From assembly GCF_011045215.1 (NCBI RefSeq), contig NZ_CP049201.1: a stretch of DNA of 64,000 nt; one strand, written 5' to 3'. The translations under genes and the position numbers were made by a program. The stretch comes from Escherichia coli. GTDB lineage: Bacteria > Pseudomonadota > Gammaproteobacteria > Enterobacterales > Enterobacteriaceae. Positions 3,068 to 51,212 of the stretch are shown here, piece by piece. The notes beneath the pieces were generated by a model. That model saw only the letters and a program-made list of their open reading frames with translations. It made no database searches and had not been told where the DNA came from. Each line of letters starts with the position of its first letter. Within the stretch, counting starts at the first letter, position 1.

Positions 3068-3175
3068 ATAAAATACCATCAATGAAGTGATTAAGAAGTT
3101 ATAGAGTAACAGGGAATTAATAAGATTCTTTTCTCTGAGACGCCAGAATATTTGTTCTGGCGTCTGATTTTGAGT

Positions 3176-9059: not shown

Positions 9060-9100
9060 CTGTAAATATCCTGGCATTAGTAATGCCAGGATATTTACAG
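9060..9100. repeat. Perfect 41-bp palindrome (20-bp arms) between convergent ykgG and ykgH
   Basis: ctgtaaatatcctggcatta g taatgccaggatatttacag read directly; no U-tract on either side, so not a canonical intrinsic terminator. Confidence 0.7.
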
Positions 9101-18000: not shown

Positions 18001-18933
18001 TTAATTCTCCCGATGCAGTAAATCCTGATAGATCCCCGTTAATATGCCATTTGGCGCAAATTGTTTTTTAATCCACTGCGTCACCTGACCCGTAGCAGAA
18101 TGCTGAGTCGCCAGCAACATGCGCGAATCCTGGCGCGGATTATGGATTTGTCGGGTAACCAGCAGGGATTGCGCCATCGCCTCACGGACCATGTAATCCG
18201 GCAAAAAACCAATTCCTTCACCTAAAATCTGGCACTGACATTTGGTGTTGAAATCTGGCACCAGAATCGACTCCTGCCCATGCAGCAACCAGCCCACTTT
18301 TTTATTAATCGTATGCGCGGTGTCCTCCACCATAATATTAGGGTAGAGACGCAGTTGGCTTTCGGCGATGGGTTCCGGCACAAAGGCTAACGGGTGATCC
18401 GGGGCGATAGCAAAAGCCCAGCGAATCGCGCCAATTTCAGTGTAATCAATACCGCCGCCGTCCAGTAGTGTATCGGGTGCGCCGATGGCGATATTGGCCT
18501 GATTATTAATAATCGCATCCCAGACGCCGTTATACACTTCGGTCGTCACGGTAATCTGGCAGGTAGGAAACTGCTTTTTCAGCACCTGTAATAAGCGCGC
18601 GGTGTGTTTGGGCGTATAAAGCAGCTGATTAATACAAATGCGCACACGCGCTTCTATGCCCTGCGAAATAGTATCTATGCTACGTTTGATGGCATAAAAA
18701 TCATTCAGCAGGTCGGTAGCTTTGCGGAAAAAATAACGCCCGGACTCGGTTAACTCAATGCTGCGGGTACTGCGAGTGAACAGCACCACATCCAGCCCCG
18801 TCTCCATACGCTTAATGGTGTAGCTAATGGCGGAAGTGGTTAAACCCAACTCTTCTGCGGCTTTACTGAAGCTGCCAAAACGCGCAGCGGTAGTAAATGC
18901 CAACAGATTCTCTTCGGTAAAAATTGAGTTCAT
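18001..18933 (-). CDS. yahB: LysR-family transcriptional regulator
   Basis: ORF 18001..18993; start at ATG 18933 (MNSIFTEENLLAFTTAARFGSFSKAAEELGLTTSAISYTIKRME = LysR HTH), 310 aa. Confidence 0.9.
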   Translation of the reverse strand: MNSIFTEENLLAFTTAARFGSFSKAAEELGLTTSAISYTIKRMETGLDVVLFTRSTRSIELTESGRYFFRKATDLLNDFYAIKRSIDTISQGIEARVRICINQLLYTPKHTARLLQVLKKQFPTCQITVTTEVYNGVWDAIINNQANIAIGAPDTLLDGGGIDYTEIGAIRWAFAIAPDHPLAFVPEPIAESQLRLYPNIMVEDTAHTINKKVGWLLHGQESILVPDFNTKCQCQILGEGIGFLPDYMVREAMAQSLLVTRQIHNPRQDSRMLLATQHSATGQVTQWIKKQFAPNGILTGIYQDLLHREN

Positions 18934-19024
18934 TAAACCATTCCCGCCATTTTCTACTTTAATTTTCTCCAGGCATAACTGTAGAGGTATCAATTAAAGA
19001 TGGGTAATCATTTTTGAATAACTT

Positions 19025-19522
19025 TTAATACCCGTCGCGTTTAGTCGTCGCTTCGCTTAATTTTTGTCCACCATATTCTGAAATTATCCCCACGCAGTTA
19101 CCCGCCAGAAAACCCAGTAACGTCACCGTCCAGTTCATCCCGCTGGCAAAAAACAGCGTCATGCCGAGAAAGCCACCGGGAATAAATGACAGTAACCAGA
19201 AACGCCCTTGCCAGACCACCACCGCCGAGAAGGGGGCGGTAGTAATTACGCTCGCCCAGAACCCAGAAATCCCACTCACCGAGGCCAGCCAACCGGCAGC
19301 CAGCGCGGCGAAAAACGCCCACACCATCCCGGAATAATTAACCGCCAGACTTCTGATAAACCCCGATTTACCGCCGCCTGCGGCATAAAAACTGCAAAAG
19401 GCGACGAAGCCAATGGTTCCTAATAATTCCCATCCCTGAGAGAGCCCGACATGTGAAGACACTAACTGCCAAAGCCCTGCACAAATACCGACGGTGACAC
19501 CCGTTGCCGTGAGTCCGTTCAT
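19025..19522 (-). CDS. yahC: Inner-membrane protein (DUF1097)
   Basis: 165-aa hydrophobic ORF upstream of yahB on the same strand. Confidence 0.85.
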   Translation of the reverse strand: MNGLTATGVTVGICAGLWQLVSSHVGLSQGWELLGTIGFVAFCSFYAAGGGKSGFIRSLAVNYSGMVWAFFAALAAGWLASVSGISGFWASVITTAPFSAVVVWQGRFWLLSFIPGGFLGMTLFFASGMNWTVTLLGFLAGNCVGIISEYGGQKLSEATTKRDGY

Positions 19523-19654
19523 CTTGTTCCCCTCTGGTTAGACATGGACGAAAGCTACTCTTACATGTGCAGACTATAGAGAAATAAAACCTGATTGAGT
19601 GAAAGGGTATCGGGTCAAAGAAACAAATATTGCACTACCGCACACTGCGAAAAG

Positions 19655-19675
19655 ATTGTTGAACATCATTCAACA
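19655..19675. promoter_or_regulatory. Perfect dyad TTGTTGAA-N5-TTCAACAA in the yahC/yahD divergent region; candidate LysR-type (YahB) box
   Basis: 8-bp perfect inverted arms with 5-bp spacer, containing a T-N11-A core, about 100 bp upstream of yahD. Binder is inferred. Confidence 0.4.
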
Positions 19676-19779
19676 AAAAGGCGAAATACGGCGAATTAAA
19701 TTTAAGCGGGTTCTTTTATCAGATTATCGTTGCTATTCTCAATTCATCGAAAACAGCCACAAAAACCAGGGGAATGTGA

Positions 19780-20385
19780 ATGAGTATAAAAAATCTACCT
19801 GCCGACTATTTATTGGCTGCACAACAGGGTGATATCGATAAAGTAAAAACCTGCCTTGCGCTGGGTGTCGATATTAATACCTGCGATCGTCAGGGGAAAA
19901 CGGCAATTACGCTGGCAAGTTTATATCAGCAATATGCTTGCGTTCAGGCATTAATTGATGCCGGAGCGGATATTAATAAACAAGATCATACCTGTTTAAA
20001 TCCTTTTTTAATTAGCTGTCTGAACGATGATTTAACGCTACTACGAATTATTTTACCGGCTAAACCCGATCTTAATTGCGTAACCCGTTTTGGCGGTGTC
20101 GGCCTGACGCCTGCCTGTGAAAAAGGCCATTTAAGTATTGTAAAAGAGCTTTTGGCGCATACGGAAATTAACGTTAACCAGACCAACCATGTAGGCTGGA
20201 CGCCGCTACTGGAAGCGATTGTGCTTAATGATGGTGGTATTAAACAACAGGCGATTGTGCAGTTATTGCTGGAACACGGTGCCAGCCCGCATCTGACCGA
20301 TAAATATGGCAAAACGCCACTGGAACTGGCGCGGGAACGGGGCTTTGACGAGATTGCGCAGTTACTGATTGCCGCAGGCGCATAA
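19780..20385 (+). CDS. yahD: Ankyrin-repeat protein
   Basis: 201-aa ORF with tandem ankyrin repeats (GKTAITLASLYQQYACVQALIDAGADIN; GWTPLLEAIVLND...LLLEHGASPH). Confidence 0.9.
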   Translation: MSIKNLPADYLLAAQQGDIDKVKTCLALGVDINTCDRQGKTAITLASLYQQYACVQALIDAGADINKQDHTCLNPFLISCLNDDLTLLRIILPAKPDLNCVTRFGGVGLTPACEKGHLSIVKELLAHTEINVNQTNHVGWTPLLEAIVLNDGGIKQQAIVQLLLEHGASPHLTDKYGKTPLELARERGFDEIAQLLIAAGA

Positions 20386-20424
20386 ACCGGGAGGCTTGCA
20401 ATCAACACACCAGAAAAACGGTGT

Positions 20425-21288
20425 ATGTGGGCGCTAACTGCGGATGCGGATTTTCTGGCGCAGCGGGGGCAAGGACAGGTTGAACAGGTCTTTGCCAGAG
20501 CGGTAAATATCGCACTCCCGGCTCGCCAGCAGTTGCTGACGCTGCTTTGTGAAGAGTACGACAATGCGCCAAACAGTTGTCGGTTGGCACTCACTCACTT
20601 TGATGATCTGTTCCGGCATGGTGATAAGGTTCAGTTTGACGATCAAGGTATTACGGTTGGTCAACATCTTCATATAGAGATGAGTCGTTGTCGGCGTTGG
20701 CTGTCCCCAACCTTGCAAATGACCGCTGTGAATTTTCACCTTATCGCCTGGCAACAGTGGCACGACATTATTCATCAGCACCTGGGGGAAAATGAAACCC
20801 TGTTTAATTATCGCGGCGATAATCCGTTTTATCAGGCGTTAAATAAAGAATTACATATTAAACGACGGGCAGTTATTCAGACAGTAAACGATAAGCAAAA
20901 TATCGCCTCAGCGGTCGCCAGTATGATGGGGTTAGGGATTGGCCTTACGCCATCAGCCGACGATTATTTAACAGGTCTGGCGCTTATTTTATTTATTCCC
21001 GGGCATCCGGCGGAAAAATACAAAGAGGAATTTTATCTCGGTCTGCAACGCGGCAGAAATAATACCACATTATTAAGTGCTATAACGCTGGAAGCCGCAT
21101 TACAACAACGTTGCCGGGAAAATATTCATCGTTTTATTCACAACATTATTTATGACATCCCTGGGAACGCAACTCAGGCAATAGAAAAAATTAAACATAT
21201 TGGCTCCAGTTCCGGCTGCGACATGCTGTATGGCATGGCCGATGGTTGTGCGCTGAGCCAAACCTACGGAGGGAATTATGTCAGTTAA
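20425..21288 (+). CDS. yahE: DUF2877-family protein (YlbF paralog)
   Basis: 287-aa ORF; 3' end overlaps the yahF start by 11 nt. Confidence 0.85.
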   Translation: MWALTADADFLAQRGQGQVEQVFARAVNIALPARQQLLTLLCEEYDNAPNSCRLALTHFDDLFRHGDKVQFDDQGITVGQHLHIEMSRCRRWLSPTLQMTAVNFHLIAWQQWHDIIHQHLGENETLFNYRGDNPFYQALNKELHIKRRAVIQTVNDKQNIASAVASMMGLGIGLTPSADDYLTGLALILFIPGHPAEKYKEEFYLGLQRGRNNTTLLSAITLEAALQQRCRENIHRFIHNIIYDIPGNATQAIEKIKHIGSSSGCDMLYGMADGCALSQTYGGNYVS

Positions 21289-22825
21289 AATAGTCATTAA
21301 ACCGAATACCTATTTTGATTCTGTCTCGCTGATGTCTATCTCCACGCGTGCAAATAAACTCGACGGCGTCGAGCAGGCATTTGTGGCGATGGCGACCGAA
21401 ATGAATAAAGGCGTGCTGAAGAATTTAGGACTGCTGACGCCGGAGCTGGAACAGGCGAAAAACGGCGACCTGATGATTGTCATCAATGGTAAATCGGGTG
21501 CGGACAACGAGCAGTTGCTGGTGGAGATTGAAGAACTGTTCAACACCAAAGCGCAAAGCGGCTCGCACGAGGCGCGTTACGCCACTATTGCCAGCGCCAA
21601 AAAGCATATCCCGGAAAGTAACCTGGCGGTGATTTCGGTCAACGGTCTGTTTGCCGCTCGCGAAGCGCGTCAGGCGCTGCAAAACGATCTCAACGTGATG
21701 CTGTTTTCCGATAACGTCTCGGTTGAAGATGAACTGGCGCTCAAACAGTTGGCCCATGAAAAAGGGCTGCTGATGATGGGGCCGGACTGCGGCACGGCGA
21801 TTATCAACGGCGCGGCGCTCTGCTTTGGTAACGCCGTGCGTCGCGGTAACATCGGTATTGTTGGCGCATCCGGCACCGGCAGCCAGGAGCTGAGCGTCCG
21901 CATTCATGAATTTGGCGGAGGCGTTTCGCAACTCATCGGCACCGGCGGGCGCGACCTGAGCGAGAAAATCGGCGGCCTGATGATGCTCGACGCCATCGGG
22001 ATGCTGGAAAACGATCCGCAAACTGAAATTATCGCGCTGATTTCAAAACCTCCCGCGCCTGCGGTGGCCCGTAAAGTGCTGGAACGCGCCCGCGCCTGCC
22101 GCAAGCCGGTGGTGGTCTGCTTCCTCGGTCGTGGCGAAACGCCAGTGGACGAGCAGGGGCTACAGTTTGCTCGCGGCAGCAAAGAAGCGGCGCTGAAAGC
22201 GGTGATGCTCTCCGGCGTGAAACAGGAACATCTCGATCTGCATACCCTGAACCAGCCGTTGATTGCGGATGTGCGTGCGCGTCTGCAACCCCAGCAGAAA
22301 TACATTCGTGGCCTGTTCTGCGGCGGTACGCTGTGTGACGAAACCATGTTCGCGGTGATGGAAAAACACGGCGATGTCTACAGCAACATCCAGCCCGATC
22401 CTGAATTCCGCCTGCAAGATATCAACCGCAGCATCAAACACACCTTCCTCGACTTTGGCGATGACGACTTCACCAACGGCAAGCCGCACCCGATGATTGA
22501 CCCCACCAACCGTATCAGCCGCTTGATCGAAGAAGCGCGCGATCCAGAAGTGGCGGTGATCGTGATGGATTTTGTGCTCGGATTTGGATCGCACGAAGAT
22601 CCGGTTGGTTCCACCATCGAGGCGATCAAAGAAGCGAAAGCGATCGCCGCTGCCGAAGGACGCGAGTTGATCATTCTCGCCTATGTGCTGGGTACCGATC
22701 TTGATACGCCATCGTTAGAACAACAAAGCCAGATGCTGCTTGATGCCGGAGTGATTCTGGCGAGCAGCAGCACCAATACCGGATTGCTGGCGCGTGAATT
22801 TATCTGCAAAGGGGAGGAAGCCTGA
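21278..22825 (+). CDS. yahF: FdrA-like protein (succinyl-CoA synthetase-like CoA-binding/ligase folds)
   Basis: 515-aa ORF; FdrA-family architecture. Confidence 0.85.
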   Translation: MSVKIVIKPNTYFDSVSLMSISTRANKLDGVEQAFVAMATEMNKGVLKNLGLLTPELEQAKNGDLMIVINGKSGADNEQLLVEIEELFNTKAQSGSHEARYATIASAKKHIPESNLAVISVNGLFAAREARQALQNDLNVMLFSDNVSVEDELALKQLAHEKGLLMMGPDCGTAIINGAALCFGNAVRRGNIGIVGASGTGSQELSVRIHEFGGGVSQLIGTGGRDLSEKIGGLMMLDAIGMLENDPQTEIIALISKPPAPAVARKVLERARACRKPVVVCFLGRGETPVDEQGLQFARGSKEAALKAVMLSGVKQEHLDLHTLNQPLIADVRARLQPQQKYIRGLFCGGTLCDETMFAVMEKHGDVYSNIQPDPEFRLQDINRSIKHTFLDFGDDDFTNGKPHPMIDPTNRISRLIEEARDPEVAVIVMDFVLGFGSHEDPVGSTIEAIKEAKAIAAAEGRELIILAYVLGTDLDTPSLEQQSQMLLDAGVILASSSTNTGLLAREFICKGEEA

Positions 22826-24243
22826 TGAGCCAGTCACTGTTTAGCCAACCATTGAACGTTATTAACGTCGGCATCGCCATGTTTAGCGATGACCTGAAAA
22901 AGCAGCATGTAGAAGTGACTCAACTCGACTGGACGCCGCCGGGGCAGGGCAATATGCAGGTGGTGCAGGCGCTGGATAACATTGCCGATTCGCCGCTGGC
23001 AGACAAAATCGCCGCCGCTAACCAGCAGGCGCTGGAGCGCATTATCCAGTCGCATCCGGTGCTGATTGGTTTTGATCAGGCGATTAACGTGGTGCCGGGC
23101 ATGACGGCGAAAACCATTCTTCACGCCGGGCCGCCGATCACCTGGGAAAAAATGTGCGGCGCGATGAAAGGCGCGGTCACCGGAGCGCTGGTGTTCGAAG
23201 GGCTGGCGAAAGATCTCGATGAGGCGGCTGACCTGGCGGCTTCCGGGGAGATCACCTTCTCGCCGTGTCACGAGCACGACTGCGTGGGATCGATGGCGGG
23301 TGTGACCTCGGCCTCGATGTTTATGCACATCGTAAAAAACAAAACCTACGGCAACATCGCTTATACCAACATGAGCGAGCAGATGGCGAAGATTTTGCGT
23401 ATGGGCGCTAACGACCAGAGCGTGATTGACCGCCTGAACTGGATGCGTGATGTGCAGGGACCAATACTGCGCGACGCGATGAAAATTATCGGCGAAATCG
23501 ATCTGCGCTTAATGCTGGCGCAGGCGCTGCATATGGGCGATGAGTGCCATAACCGCAATAACGCCGGGACGACGCTGCTGATTCAGGCGCTGACGCCGGG
23601 GATTATCCAGGCGGGCTATTCCGTGGAGCAACAGCGCGAAGTGTTTGAGTTTGTCGCCAGCAGCGACTACTTCTCCGGCCCGACGTGGATGGCGATGTGT
23701 AAAGCGGCGATGGATGCGGCGCACGGCATCGAATACAGCACCGTCGTTACCACCATGGCGCGTAACGGCGTCGAATTCGGCCTGCGAGTCAGCGGATTAC
23801 CGGGGCAATGGTTTACCGGCCCGGCGCAGCAGGTTATTGGCCCGATGTTTGCCGGTTATAAGCCGGAAGATTCAGGGCTGGATATTGGCGACAGCGCCAT
23901 CACTGAAACCTACGGTATTGGCGGGTTTGCCATGGCGACCGCGCCTGCAATCGTCGCGCTGGTCGGCGGTACGGTGGAAGAGGCTATCGATTTCTCCCGT
24001 CAGATGCGCGAAATCACTCTCGGTGAAAACCCCAACGTCACCATTCCGCTGCTCGGTTTTATGGGCGTGCCGTCGGCAATCGACATCACCCGCGTGGGTA
24101 GCAGCGGCATTCTGCCGGTGATCAACACCGCCATCGCCCATAAAGATGCGGGCGTCGGCATGATTGGCGCGGGCATTGTGCATCCACCTTTTGCCTGCTT
24201 CGAGAAAGCCATTCTTGGCTGGTGCGAACGTTACGGCGTCTGA
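22825..24243 (+). CDS. yahG: DUF1116-family protein (YlbE paralog)
   Basis: 472-aa ORF starting on the yahF stop codon (ATGA overlap). Confidence 0.85.
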   Translation: MSQSLFSQPLNVINVGIAMFSDDLKKQHVEVTQLDWTPPGQGNMQVVQALDNIADSPLADKIAAANQQALERIIQSHPVLIGFDQAINVVPGMTAKTILHAGPPITWEKMCGAMKGAVTGALVFEGLAKDLDEAADLAASGEITFSPCHEHDCVGSMAGVTSASMFMHIVKNKTYGNIAYTNMSEQMAKILRMGANDQSVIDRLNWMRDVQGPILRDAMKIIGEIDLRLMLAQALHMGDECHNRNNAGTTLLIQALTPGIIQAGYSVEQQREVFEFVASSDYFSGPTWMAMCKAAMDAAHGIEYSTVVTTMARNGVEFGLRVSGLPGQWFTGPAQQVIGPMFAGYKPEDSGLDIGDSAITETYGIGGFAMATAPAIVALVGGTVEEAIDFSRQMREITLGENPNVTIPLLGFMGVPSAIDITRVGSSGILPVINTAIAHKDAGVGMIGAGIVHPPFACFEKAILGWCERYGV

Positions 24244-24254
24244 CCTACATGTTC

Positions 24255-24715
24255 ATGCCGGATGCGGCGTGAACGCCTTATCCGGCCTACAAGTGGCGCA
24301 AGAATTTGTAGGCCTGATAAGCGTAGCGCATCAGGCATTTGTCACCATTGCCTGATGCGGCGTGAACGCCTTATCCGGCCTACGAGTGGCGCGAGAATTT
24401 GTAGGCCTGATAAGCGTAGCGCATCAGGCATTTGTCACCATTGCCGGATGCGGCGTGAACGCCTTATCCGGCCTACGAGTGGCACGAGAATTTGTAGGCC
24501 TGATAAGCGTAGCGCATCAGGCATTTGTCACCATTGCCGGATGCGGCGTGAACGCCTTATCCGGCCTACGAGTGGCACGAGAATTTGTAGGCCTGATAAG
24601 CGTAGCGCATCAGGCATTTGTCACCATTGCCGGATGCGGCGTGAACGCCTTATCCGGCCTACGAGTGGCACGAGAATTTGTAGGCCTGATAAGCGTAGCG
24701 CATCAGGCAATTTGG
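24255..24715. repeat. REP/BIME array, about 5 tandem units of 93-94 bp
   Basis: Unit gccggatgcggcgtgaacgccttatccggcctacgagtggcgcgagaatttgtaggcctgataagcgtagcgcatcaggcatttgtcaccatt recurs starting near 24258, 24351, 24444, 24538 and 24631. Confidence 0.9.
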
Positions 24716-24758
24716 CGTTGGTCACAACCCCATCATCCTCTGTAGCGGACATAACAAA

Positions 24759-25709
24759 ATGAAAGAGCTTGTGGTCGTTGCCATTGGTGGCAACAGCATT
24801 ATCAAAGATAACGCCAGCCAGTCGATTGAGCATCAGGCGGAGGCGGTGAAAGCCGTCGCCGATACGGTGCTGGAAATGCTGGCTTCCGATTACGACATTG
24901 TGCTGACCCACGGTAACGGGCCGCAGGTCGGGCTGGATTTACGCCGTGCGGAGATTGCCCACGAGCGCGAAGGGCTGCCCTTAACGCCGCTGGCGAACTG
25001 TGTGGCAGATACGCAGGGCGGCATCGGCTATCTGATCCAACAGGCGCTGAATAACCGGCTGGCGCGTCACGGCGAGAAGAAAGCCGTCACCGTGGTGACT
25101 CAGGTGGAAGTGGATAAAAACGATCCAGGTTTTGCCCATCCCACCAAGCCCATTGGTGCATTCTTCAGTGAAAGCCAGCGTGACGAATTACAAAAGGCAA
25201 ACCCTGACTGGCGTTTTGTTGAAGATGCCGGACGGGGCTATCGCCGCGTGGTCGCCTCGCCGGAACCGAAACGTATTGTCGAAGCACCCGCCATTAAGGC
25301 GCTGATCCAACAAGGCTTTGTGGTGATTGGCGCGGGCGGCGGCGGAATTCCTGTGGTGCGTACTGACGCGGGAGATTACCAAAGCGTGGACGCGGTTATC
25401 GACAAAGATCTCTCTACCGCGCTACTGGCTCGCGAAATTCACGCCGACATTCTGGTGATCACCACTGGCGTGGAAAAAGTGTGTATTCATTTTGGTAAAC
25501 CGCAGCAACAGGCGCTCGATCGGGTGGATATTGCCACCATGACCCGCTATATGCAGGAAGGGCATTTCCCGCCCGGCAGCATGTTGCCAAAAATCATCGC
25601 CAGCCTGACGTTCCTGGAACAGGGCGGCAAAGAAGTGATTATCACCACGCCGGAATGCCTGCCTGCGGCGCTGCGCGGTGAAACGGGCACCCATATTATT
25701 AAAACGTAA
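24759..25709 (+). CDS. yahI: Carbamate kinase-family protein
   Basis: 316-aa ORF; amino-acid kinase fold motifs (VVVAIGGNSI, THGNGPQVG, VIGAGGGGIPV). Confidence 0.9.
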   Translation: MKELVVVAIGGNSIIKDNASQSIEHQAEAVKAVADTVLEMLASDYDIVLTHGNGPQVGLDLRRAEIAHEREGLPLTPLANCVADTQGGIGYLIQQALNNRLARHGEKKAVTVVTQVEVDKNDPGFAHPTKPIGAFFSESQRDELQKANPDWRFVEDAGRGYRRVVASPEPKRIVEAPAIKALIQQGFVVIGAGGGGIPVVRTDAGDYQSVDAVIDKDLSTALLAREIHADILVITTGVEKVCIHFGKPQQQALDRVDIATMTRYMQEGHFPPGSMLPKIIASLTFLEQGGKEVIITTPECLPAALRGETGTHIIKT

Positions 25710-25718
25710 GGACGTAAG

Positions 25719-27101
25719 ATGAAAGAAAGCAATAGCCGCCGTGAATTTCTGAGCCAGAGCGGTAAGATGGTCACCGCCGCCGCGCTGTTTGGTACCTCTG
25801 TGCCGCTCGCCCATGCGGCGGTAGCTGGCACCCTAAACTGCGAAGCGAACAACACCATGAAAATCACTGACCCGCATTACTATCTCGACAACGTGCTGCT
25901 GGAAACTGGATTTGACTACGAAAATGGCGTGGCGGTGCAGACCCGCACGGCGCGCCAGACCGTGGAGATTCAGGACGGCAAAATTGTCGCGCTGCGCGAG
26001 AACAAGCAGCATCCGGACGCCACGCTGCCGCACTATGACGCTGGCGATAAGCTGATGCTGCCCACCACCCGCGACATGCATATTCATCTCGACAAAACCT
26101 TCTACGGCGGGCCGTGGCGCTCGCTCAATCGTCCGGCAGGCACCACTATCCAGGACATGATCAAACTCGAGCAGAAAATGCTGCCGGAGTTACAACCGTA
26201 TACGCAGGAGCGGGCGGAAAAACTGATCGATCTATTGCAGTCGAAAGGCACCACCATTGCCCGCAGCCACTGCAATATCGAACCGGTTTCCGGTCTGAAA
26301 AATCTGCAAAATTTGCAGGCGGTGCTGGCGCGACGTCAGGCGGGCTTCGAGTGTGAAATCGTCGCCTTCCCGCAGCACGGTTTGCTGCTGTCGAAATCGG
26401 AACCCTTAATGCGCGAAGCGATGCAGGCGGGTGCGCATTACGTCGGCGGGCTGGACCCGACCAGTGTCGATGGCGCGATGGAAAAATCCCTCGACACCAT
26501 GTTCCAGATTGCGCTGGACTACGACAAAGGCGTCGATATTCACCTGCACGAAACCACTCCGTCGGGCGTGGCAGCCATCAATTATATGGTTGAAACGGTA
26601 GAGAAAACGCCTCAACTGAAAGGTAAGCTGACCATCAGCCACGCCTTTGCGCTGGCTACGCTCAACGAGCAACAGGTAGATGAACTGGCGCATCGCATGG
26701 CGGCGCAGCAAATTTCTATCGCCTCGACGGTGCCGATTGGCACGCTGCATATGCCGCTCAAACAGTTGCACGACAAAGGCGTAAAAGTGATGACTGGCAC
26801 TGACAGCGTTATCGACCACTGGTCGCCTTATGGTCTGGGCGACATGCTGGAAAAAGCCAATCTCTACGCGCAGCTCTATATTCGTCCTAACGAACAGAAC
26901 CTCTCCCGTTCGCTGTTTTTAGCCACTGGCGATGTATTGCCGCTGAATGAAAAAGGCGAGCGTGTATGGCCAAAAGCGCAGGATGACGCCAGCTTTGTGC
27001 TGGTGGACGCCTCCTGTTCCGCCGAGGCGGTGGCGCGTATCTCGCCGAGAACCGCAACGTTCCATAAAGGGCAACTGGTGTGGGGGAGTGTGGCAGGTTG
27101 A
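25719..27101 (+). CDS. yahJ: Amidohydrolase-superfamily deaminase with twin-arginine (Tat) signal peptide
   Basis: 460-aa ORF; N-terminal SRREFLSQSGKMVTAAALFGTSVPLAHA (Tat motif S-R-R-x-F-L); metal-binding HxH motif (HIH). Confidence 0.9.
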   Translation: MKESNSRREFLSQSGKMVTAAALFGTSVPLAHAAVAGTLNCEANNTMKITDPHYYLDNVLLETGFDYENGVAVQTRTARQTVEIQDGKIVALRENKQHPDATLPHYDAGDKLMLPTTRDMHIHLDKTFYGGPWRSLNRPAGTTIQDMIKLEQKMLPELQPYTQERAEKLIDLLQSKGTTIARSHCNIEPVSGLKNLQNLQAVLARRQAGFECEIVAFPQHGLLLSKSEPLMREAMQAGAHYVGGLDPTSVDGAMEKSLDTMFQIALDYDKGVDIHLHETTPSGVAAINYMVETVEKTPQLKGKLTISHAFALATLNEQQVDELAHRMAAQQISIASTVPIGTLHMPLKQLHDKGVKVMTGTDSVIDHWSPYGLGDMLEKANLYAQLYIRPNEQNLSRSLFLATGDVLPLNEKGERVWPKAQDDASFVLVDASCSAEAVARISPRTATFHKGQLVWGSVAG

Positions 27102-44827: not shown

Positions 44828-46009
44828 ATGCGCAACCATCAAAAGACGTTCACGATACTGCTGGTTCTGGTGCTGATTGGTCTTAATATGCGACCTCTGC
44901 TCACCTCCGTCGGGCCACTGCTACCGCAATTGCGCCAGGCAAGCGGAATGAGCTTTAGCGTGGCTGCCCGGTTGACCGCTCTGCCGGTGGTTACCATGGG
45001 CGGGCTGGCGCTGGCCGGAAGCTGGCTTCATCAGCATGTCAGCGAACGTCGCAGCGTCGCCATCAGTTTGTTACTGATTGCCGTCGGTGCATTGATGCGT
45101 GAGCTTTACCCCCAAAGTGCGCTGCTGCTTAGCAGCGCACTGCTCGGTGGGGTGGGGATCGGCATCATTCAGGCGGTGATGCCTTCGGTGATTAAACGGC
45201 GGTTTCAGCAGCGCACGCCACTGGTGATGGGGCTGTGGTCCGCGGCTCTGATGGGCGGCGGTGGGCTTGGTGCCGCCCTGACACCCTGGTTAGTTCAACA
45301 TAGCGAAACCTGGTATCAAACACTCGCCTGGTGGGCGCTGCCTGCCGTTGTTGCGCTCTTTGCCTGGTGGTGGTGAAGCGCCCGCGAGGTCGCCTCTTCC
45401 CACAAGACAACAACCACTCCGGTTCGCGTGGTTTTCACTCCTCGCGCGTGGACGCTGGGTGTTTACTTCGGTCTGATTAACGGTGGTTACGCCAGCCTGA
45501 TTGCCTGGTTACCCGCCTTCTATATTGAGATTGGTGCCAGCGCGCAGTACAGCGGTTCCTTGCTGGCATTGATGACGCTTGGGCAAGCCGCAGGAGCTTT
45601 GCTGATGCCTGCTATGGCTCGCCATCAGGATCGGCGCAAACTTTTGCTGTTGGCACTGGCGTTACAACTGGTGGGTTTCTGCGGCTTTATCTGGCTGCCG
45701 CTGCAATTGCCGGTATTGTGGGCGATGGTGTGTGGTTTAGGTCTGGGCGGCGCATTTCCGCTCTGTTTGCTGCTGGCTCTCGATCACTCTGTGCAACCGG
45801 CTATTGCTGGCAAGCTGGTGGCGTTTATGCAGGGGATCGGTTTTATCATCGCCGGGCTTGCCCCGTGGTTTTCTGGCGTGCTGCGTAGTATCAGCGGCAA
45901 TTACCTGATGGACTGGGCGTTTCATGCGCTGTGCGTCGTTGGGCTGATGATTATAACCCTGCGTTTTGCACCAGCACGTTTTCCGCAGCTGTGGGTCAAA
46001 GAGGCATAA
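44828..46009 (+). pseudogene. cynX: MFS cyanate transporter cynX, interrupted by an in-frame TGA at 45374-45376
   Basis: ORFs 44828..45376 (182 aa, ...ALFAWWW*) and 45428..46009 (193 aa) lie in the same frame (offset 600 nt); the 51 nt after the TGA continue in frame as SAREVASSHKTTTTPVRVVFTP, the contiguous CynX sequence. Confidence 0.7.
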
Positions 46010-48093: not shown

Positions 48094-51206
<3,113 letters not shown>

Positions 51207-51212
51207 TCACAC

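Follow-up and report, generated by a model that had tools for sequence, protein, structure and literature searches.

A conserved dyad upstream of yahD is a probable operator of the LysR-type regulator YahB in Escherichia coli

Introduction

The control regions described for LysR-type regulators (LTTRs) such as BenM, CbnR and AtzR share a standard design. The regulator gene is divergent from its target, a T-N11-A RBS is accompanied about three helical turns downstream by a weaker ABS near a poor -35 element, and there is an autoregulatory site. The RBS is usually centred around position -65 of the target transcription start. MetR is also an LTTR, and its box is TGAA-N5-TTCA.

Two E. coli LTTR systems are of particular relevance here. 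AllS, together with ArcA, directly activates allFGHK, which encodes oxamic transcarbamylase and carbamate kinase (PMC12535856). The products of this target are FdrA/AllF, YlbE/AllG, YlbF/AllH and YbcF/AllK, and the AllS site lies upstream, in a divergent intergenic region (PMC12535856). The operator of PunR (YdhB), in the punR/punC divergent region, is a validated 23-bp imperfect palindrome, TsttwTCAAwAwwwTTGaaGGCA, with a 5-bp A/T-rich centre (PMC8376909). It was found by phylogenetic footprinting and then validated by ChIP-exo, FP and EMSA, and binding of PunR to DNA in vitro required its effector, adenine (PMC8376909).

A 2024 survey counted the yahC-yahM region among the parts of the E. 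coli K-12 genome in which uncharacterised genes cluster most densely (PMC11551758). Both yahB and yahC-yahM are listed as uncharacterised, and the RefSeq name for YahB is still 'putative'. In the literature searched, nothing assigning a function or a site to YahB was found beyond candidate lists and a negative ChIP-exo experiment. An earlier note, made from sequence alone, had drawn attention to a dyad between yahC and yahD, and this element is analyzed here in its genomic and comparative context.

Materials and methods

The window is the whole 64-kb stretch of E. coli DNA that was analyzed, and feature coordinates refer to it unless a locus number is given. Annotation in identical E. coli records confirmed the gene names used for the window. 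The inverted-repeat count covered the whole 64-kb window and took in perfect repeats whose arms were 8 bp or longer and whose spacer did not exceed 10 bp.

The comparative set was obtained by a scan with YahE as the query, taking one genome per species, and comprised 32 loci besides the window (33 in total). The 32 loci represent 11 genera: Escherichia, Citrobacter, Kluyvera, Raoultella, Trabulsiella, Enterobacter, Pseudocitrobacter, Yokenella, Buttiauxella, Atlantibacter and Serratia. Site A was aligned using the 200 bp upstream of yahD in each locus. A PWM was built solely from the boxes upstream of yahD, with the spacer masked, and both strands of the window were scanned with it. A YahB protein search retrieved orthologues down to 53% identity, and the genomic context was read for nine of them. 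For the mapping of a published YfeC peak, the coordinates were read as those of NC_000913.2.

Results

The gene order at the locus was pdeL, yahB, yahC, yahD, yahE, yahF (annotated as fdrA), yahG, a gap, yahI and yahJ. The LysR-family regulator gene yahB (18001..18933) and yahC (19025..19522), which encodes a DUF1097 membrane protein, are on the minus strand. On the plus strand, yahD (19780-20385; ankyrin) is the first gene of the predicted target operon, which is completed by yahE (AllH-like), yahF (AllF/FdrA-like) and yahG (AllG-like) and spans 19780..24243. The genes yahI (carbamate-kinase family) and yahJ (amidohydrolase) follow at 24759..27101. Between yahG and yahI is a gap of 515 bp (24244-24758) with REP-like inverted repeats, for example CTTATCCGGCCTACAA / TTGTAGGCCTGATAAG, which the y-ome paper describes as 'yahH, filled with REP23 sites'; no match to the YahB box described below was found in this gap using either the PWM or the core pattern. 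Where the earlier note had spoken of a yahD-J operon, yahD-G can be retained as a contiguous predicted target, while the REP-containing gap stands before yahI.

The association of yahB with these genes is conserved. The regulator gene adjoins yahD-E-F-G in 32/32 species loci, and in the 19 of these that lack yahC (L011, L013, L016-L023 and L025-L033) yahB is directly divergent from yahD. Across the 32-locus set, pdeL is confined to Escherichia loci. The yahC gene separates one YahB box from the other in Escherichia, Kluyvera, Raoultella, Enterobacter sp. 10-1, Pseudocitrobacter and two lineages of Citrobacter (L005 and L007), and the remaining loci lack it. The YahB proteins of the 32 loci (L002-L033) are 86-99% identical to the E. 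coli protein, with values of 86-95% outside Escherichia; there, YahE is only 41-64% and YahD 69-80% identical. These identities indicate either that YahB is under much tighter constraint than some of its presumed targets or that it was exchanged more recently.

The dyad, TTGTTGAA-CATCA-TTCAACAA, was read directly from the window sequence. It has 8-bp arms and a 5-bp spacer, and the full element, TTGTTGAACATCATTCAACAA, lies at 19656-19676 within the surrounding sequence GATTGTTGAACATCATTCAACAAAAAGG. The earlier note had placed it at 19655-19675, so the element exists as reported and its coordinates move one base to the right. The arms are 100% complementary, and inside the dyad is a T-N11-A core (T19660...A19672); the sequence confirms the note on both points. 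The intergenic gap between yahC and yahD that holds the dyad is 257 bp. The yahD ATG is 103 bp from the nearest edge of the dyad, which is upstream of it, and 114 bp from the dyad centre, in agreement with the original estimate of about 100 bp. In Escherichia, where the intergenic region is shared, the dyad is also 144 bp upstream of the yahC ATG.

By itself, the dyad is only marginally unusual and is not statistically remarkable. The exact pattern is unique within the window, although this test is post hoc. The inverted-repeat count for the 64 kb gave 33 raw matches, corresponding to ~ 18 distinct elements, against a mean of 11.5 raw matches in locally shuffled sequence, and ~ 0.05 such repeats would be expected in the 257-bp intergenic region. 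Since the window contains ~ 18 comparable palindromes, the case has to rest on comparative evidence, namely conservation.

Some perfect palindromes elsewhere in the window are longer, with arms of 10-12 bp (9068-9092, 45116-45141, 2055-2080, 3139-3164 and 9-33), and ATCCTGGCATTAGTAATGCCAGGAT and AGTGCGCTGCTGCTTAGCAGCGCACT are examples of these. The palindrome GAAATTGTTATCCGCTCACAATTTC at 51184-51208 is the sequence of lac operator O1, so the window reaches into the lac region.

The earlier note had proposed looking for the dyad in orthologous regions, and there the arms were found to be kept and the spacer free in 32 other species. The alignments define a 23-bp box, ATTRTTRAA-N5-TTCAAYAAT (site A; 19655..19677, plus strand, centre 19666), predicted to be an RBS-like primary operator, whose arms are conserved additionally in Aeromonas, Zophobihabitans and a Klebsiella-like contig. 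Conservation reaches 90-100% in the arm columns other than positions 4 and 20, a symmetric R/Y pair, and position 7, which is G in Escherichia and A in most genera. It is only ~ 40-60% in the left flank and in the five columns of the spacer. The same pattern is seen within E. coli, where the spacer is polymorphic but the arms are not, the common polymorphisms being two spacer bases and one flank base. The spacer CATCA is present in this window and at least 3248 E. coli records, and TATTA in K-12 and ~ 1547 E. coli records; with the latter spacer, the K-12 element, at NC_000913.3 335156-335176, becomes a perfect 21-bp palindrome, TTGTTGAATA-T-TATTCAACAA.

The arm changes at site A did not behave as those of a base-paired stem. 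No pair was altered on both sides, and 497 of 500 shuffles reached the observed covariation score; pair 7-17 was unpaired in 23 of the 32 sequences and pair 4-20 in 11 of them. A free spacer together with arm changes that are not compensatory argues for a protein site in which each half-site is read, not for a hairpin, and the pattern points to a dimeric DNA-binding protein reading two half-sites.

A second conserved element, block 1 (TGCACTACCGCACA; 19631..19644), was recognized in the cross-species alignments, in most genera as GTGC-N6-GCAC. Its centre is 29 bp upstream of the site A centre, a spacing that is fixed, and in Aeromonas (L046) it takes the form of a perfect TGTGC-N4-GCACA. No likeness of block 1 to the YahB box, CRP, NtrC or promoter sequences was found; CRP and NtrC were rejected on inspection because the spacing or the half-site order is wrong. 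Block 1 may be the site of a second factor.

Further copies of the motif were identified close by. The core TT[AG]AA-N5-TTC occurs eight times on the two strands of the window, where ~ 4 occurrences would be expected, and four of the eight matches, representing three sites, cluster within 700 bp (19014-19705). One match, at 19693-19705 on the minus strand and within the conserved block GAATnAAATTTAAGCGG, defines site C, a weaker, ABS-like core copy of sequence CCGC-TTAAA-TTTAA-TTCGC-CGTA (19687..19709, minus strand, centre 19698). Site C was present in 32 of 33 loci with its centre exactly 32 bp downstream of the aligned site A position, for a chance expectation of 0.03 core matches per 200 bp of shuffled intergenic sequence, and the same 32-bp spacing was observed in Aeromonas and in the Klebsiella-like contig (L045). 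Readings of site C as an ArgR or ArcA site were discarded, as the matches are partial and are not conserved.

The PWM scan identified site B, GGTATTAAAAGTTATTCAAAAAT (19010..19032, minus strand), as the sole non-self match above 8 bits in the 64-kb window. Site B is 77-99 bp upstream of the yahB ATG, overlaps the yahC stop codon and is predicted to be an autoregulatory site. Its equivalent upstream of yahB was a top-ranked non-self PWM match in 32/32 loci, and aligns as a conserved block. A -10-like box, TTTAAT (18993..18998, minus strand), begins 11 nt past site B and, from its sequence and from aligned xATAxx boxes in other species, is predicted to be the -10 element of a yahB-specific promoter, near the -35 of which site B would be centred; the yahB transcription start is predicted to lie near 18986. 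With its own conserved site and -10-like box, yahB probably does not form one unit with yahC. The placing of the dyad between a yahC-yahB unit and the yahD-J unit is correct as to the gap between yahC and yahD, but yahB apparently has a promoter and box of its own and need not be cotranscribed with yahC.

Of the 19 species without yahC, 18 have sites B and A 178 bp apart and the remaining one has them 179 bp apart (~ 17 helical turns). This distance is maintained although the intergenic length ranges from 367 to 403 bp in these species, which may point to a constraint from phasing or looping.

Conservation across the region is highest in TTGCTATTCTCA, 20 nt downstream of site C, which is kept in nearly all 33 loci; in the sequences compared, the intervening 20 nt vary in sequence with no change in length. 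Within TTGCTATTCTCA is TGcTATTCT (19731..19739, plus strand), which on the basis of its conservation and of sigma-70 rules is predicted to be the extended -10 of a yahD promoter. The corresponding -35 position, TTCTTT (19711-19716), is poor, and site C ends beside it. A consensus sigma-70 promoter scan, at its threshold, returned nothing in the yahD upstream region. A poor -35 and no consensus promoter fit an activator-dependent yahD promoter, while the promoter itself stays a prediction. The possibility of a sigma-54 promoter around the invariant TTGCT was considered and rejected, since on inspection E. coli has no GG at -24 and the bases further upstream vary between species.

The predicted promoter would place the yahD transcription start near 19746. 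Counted from this position, the centre of site A is at about -80, that of site C at about -48 and the end of site C at about -37. The predicted geometry is therefore ~ 15 bp further upstream than textbook LTTR positions, with site A near -80 as against -65. Sites A and C are three helical turns apart, and the pair would match an LTTR RBS/ABS pair.

More distant YahB orthologues (53-84% identity) mostly adjoin yahD/E/F/G/I/J-type genes and have the core motif in the promoter region, despite rearranged gene order. In Aeromonas cavernicola (84%), the whole architecture was found as TGTGCCATCGCACA, ATTATTGAATTATTTTCAACAAT, GGTGAATGCTTTTTAAGCGG and GTTGCTATTCT, in that order. The order block 1, site A, site C and TGCTATTCT was seen in both Aeromonas and Zophobihabitans, and the latter (YahB 74%) has a close version of the block 1/A/C/-10 architecture. 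A search of the Aeromonas locus using the strict core pattern gave no equivalent of site B. In Zophobihabitans entericus (L044 1411-3864), a fusion of the AllH-like gene with the AllF-like gene gives an 817-residue product. On the Klebsiella-like contig (L045 2854-5942), a 71%-identical YahB-like gene is divergent from an ankyrin (yahD-like) and an amidohydrolase (yahJ-like) gene alone; boxes A and C are present 32 bp apart, together with a -10-like box, and AllFGH-like genes are absent. This locus is a reduced or ancestral module.

Among the YahB orthologues of 53-77% identity, four of the five with context read (Pasteurella, Neisseria, Neisseriaceae and Herminiimonas-like) are linked to AllH/AllF/AllG/carbamate-kinase genes. 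In Pasteurella testudinis (61%), yahB is inside the operon, in the order Ank-AllH-AllF-AllG-CK-YahB-amidohydrolase, and the operon is preceded by two boxes with a spacing of 33 bp, of which one, ACCTTTGAA-N5-TTCAAAGGT, is a perfect palindrome with 9-bp arms. This pair of YahB-box-like sites (L039 318-424) is flanked by two perfect CRP-consensus sites (TGTGA-N6-TCACA). A Neisseria sp. (58%) and a Neisseriaceae genome (53%) have an intergenic TTGAA-N5-TTCA beside an AllF-like gene. The Herminiimonas-like contig (71%) links yahB to AllH/AllF/AllG/CK genes, and the contig as fetched does not include the region upstream of the operon. For the Providencia sneebia orthologue (77%, L043 5001-5930), yahD-J-type genes were not found within 5 kb, nor was a clear box found upstream with the strict core pattern, and this yahB is an 'orphan' copy.

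In the Neisseriaceae genome, a DUF1097 gene (L042 1352-1843) is the last gene of the AllF-AllG-AllH-like operon. This arrangement suggests that yahC belongs functionally to the cluster, possibly as a transporter.

Precomputed Pfam assignments for the YahB clusters show an N-terminal HTH_1 domain (PF00126) and a LysR_substrate domain (PF03466), and the NCBIfam matches are to LysR families. The best family match was to AllS (NF007501; 267.1 bits against a cut-off of 372) and the second best to PunR (NF008294; 237.6 bits against a cut-off of 345), and YahB is 37% identical to AllS and 30% identical to PunR. As it falls below both equivalog cut-offs, YahB belongs to neither family and is instead a paralogue of AllS and PunR. 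In the DNA fragment bound by AllS (-203 to -144 of allF), a TTGAA-N5-TTCAA box was not evident on inspection.

A published ChIP-exo experiment with YahB-8myc in glucose M9 detected only three peaks, at ygjD, nlpI and yhcC, all of them weak (signal/noise 1.3-2.0), and a peak at yahC/yahD was not found (PMC8464067 supplement). In the RNA-seq data of the same study, also in glucose M9, yahC-yahI were nearly silent (baseMean ~ 2-25) and yahB expression was low (76) (PMC8464067). Near-silence under these conditions is as expected for an uninduced activator-dependent promoter. Given the low yahB expression, the C-terminal tag and the effector dependence of PunR binding, the negative YahB ChIP result is weak counter-evidence.

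A published YfeC ChIP-exo peak named 'yahC' (signal/noise 56, 'bound by RNAP') maps to window 19407-19438, in the 5' part of the yahC coding sequence. This peak does not coincide with the dyad.

Discussion

One interpretation of these data, to which we would give a probability of roughly 0.72, is that the dyad serves the yahD promoter as the high-affinity RBS for a LysR-type regulator, which most probably is YahB. Site A would most probably be the main site of a three-site LTTR control region that activates yahDEFG. The original suggestion that the element has the position and shape of a LysR-type site gains support, at the level of sequence, from the conserved arms with their free spacer, the adjacent yahB gene and the ABS-like and autoregulatory-like copies. 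We infer YahB to be the binder, as the earlier note had supposed, from the adjacency of yahB in 32/32 loci, the presence of the motif alongside yahB in distant taxa and the copy at the yahB promoter. All computational tests capable of contradicting the idea of a YahB operator came out in its favour.

The proposed mechanism would involve a YahB tetramer, one dimer of which occupies site A (about -80) while the other occupies the weaker site C (about -48), three helical turns away and beside the poor -35. A presumed effector would alter the complex such that RNA polymerase could use the conserved extended -10, switching on yahDEFG and possibly also yahIJ and the divergent yahC. Through site B, over the yahB promoter, YahB would exert negative autoregulation of the kind usual for LTTRs. 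The operon, with its AllFGH-like carbamoyltransferase, carbamate kinase, amidohydrolase, ankyrin and DUF1097 proteins, would, judging from its paralogues, catabolise a ureido or carbamoyl nitrogen compound.

A more elaborate version is doubtful, if conceivable. It could be that the three YahB boxes, block 1 with a putative second factor and the 178-bp spacing between sites B and A together form a looped, higher-order LTTR complex. Such a complex might couple autorepression to activation of an ATP-yielding catabolic route for a ureido or carbamoyl substrate, comprising the oxamate-transcarbamylase-like YahEFG, the carbamate kinase YahI, the amidohydrolase YahJ, the ankyrin protein YahD and the DUF1097 protein YahC.

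It is unlikely, though it merits the most attention among the alternatives, that site A is a genuine operator for a factor other than YahB, whether MetR, the neighbouring PdeL, ArcA or another regulator of both yahB and yahD. Besides the lack of a YahB ChIP-exo peak at this position, such a reading can draw on the core TGAA-CATCA-TTCA, which in E. coli matches the MetR box exactly. However, just 6 of the 33 loci retain TGAA-N5-TTCA where the dyad lies, the left half being TAAA in most loci, and MetR was therefore rejected as the cause of the conservation, for which it cannot account. PdeL was rejected because its gene is found in Escherichia loci only, whereas the site is found in all loci. 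ArcA co-activates the paralogous allF operon, but it binds direct repeats and not inverted ones, and the dyad is inverted. The motif, moreover, follows yahB through rearranged gene orders and sits on the yahB promoter, which is the signature of a local regulator.

A role for the dyad mainly in repression or other control of divergent yahC (and of yahB) by YahB, in place of yahD activation, appears quite improbable. LTTRs commonly repress divergent transcription, and in Escherichia the dyad lies upstream of yahC in the shared intergenic region (see Results). Against this, the distance of the dyad from the invariant -10-like box and from yahD is fixed in the 19 species that have no yahC, yahB has a box and -10 of its own, and the combination of a poor -35 with an adjoining ABS-like site is the geometry of an activated promoter.

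A nucleic-acid hairpin (terminator, attenuator, sRNA or cruciform) is very improbable. The perfect 8-bp stem with its 5-nt loop can form, and on the minus strand it is followed by TCTTTTC. The folding energy is not unusual, though (z = -1.28 and -0.63), no terminator-like site or Rfam match was found, no gene reads into the dyad on either strand, and the 32 sequences carry no compensatory changes; the RNA or terminator reading was rejected on these grounds. A chance palindrome without function, for which the comparable palindromes of the window and the matches in shuffled sequence might speak, is effectively refuted by half-sites conserved in at least 11 genera around a free spacer, fixed spacing to the other blocks and a motif recurring at two further predicted positions.

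The favoured assignment to YahB supplies a concrete, testable box for an uncharacterised regulator and gene cluster. That is the new element; the standard LTTR design is known, and specialists would find nothing unexpected in it. Definition of a 23-bp YahB box that recurs in RBS-like, ABS-like and predicted autoregulatory positions makes the function of YahB experimentally approachable. In addition, regulator and enzymes together tie the yah cluster to the recently solved oxamate branch of allantoin catabolism, which suggests that the cluster is a parallel pathway for another nitrogen compound.

The yah region resembles the generic LTTR design in its divergent yahB, its T-N11-A site A, its ABS-like site C and a site B on the yahB promoter. 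It differs in that the predicted RBS is centred near -80 and not -65, in the extra yahC gene between sites B and A in Escherichia, and in the extra conserved block 1. Unlike the MetR box, which the E. coli dyad core matches exactly, the YahB box has conserved positions that extend past the core (ATTRTT...AAYAAT), and no methionine genes are linked to it.

In the AllS system, the products of allFGHK are paralogues of YahF, YahG, YahE and YahI. The two regulators differ in that allS is not adjacent to allF, whereas yahB adjoins its predicted target, and the yah cluster adds ankyrin, DUF1097 and amidohydrolase genes to the allFGHK set. The PunR operator and the predicted YahB box have the same size, geometry and T-N11-A core, and were arrived at by the same footprinting logic. 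Their half-sites are TTCAA...TTGAA for PunR and TTGAA...TTCAA for the YahB box, the central base of each being swapped. PunR regulates a transporter from an experimentally validated site, whereas YahB is predicted to regulate a catabolic operon from a predicted one.
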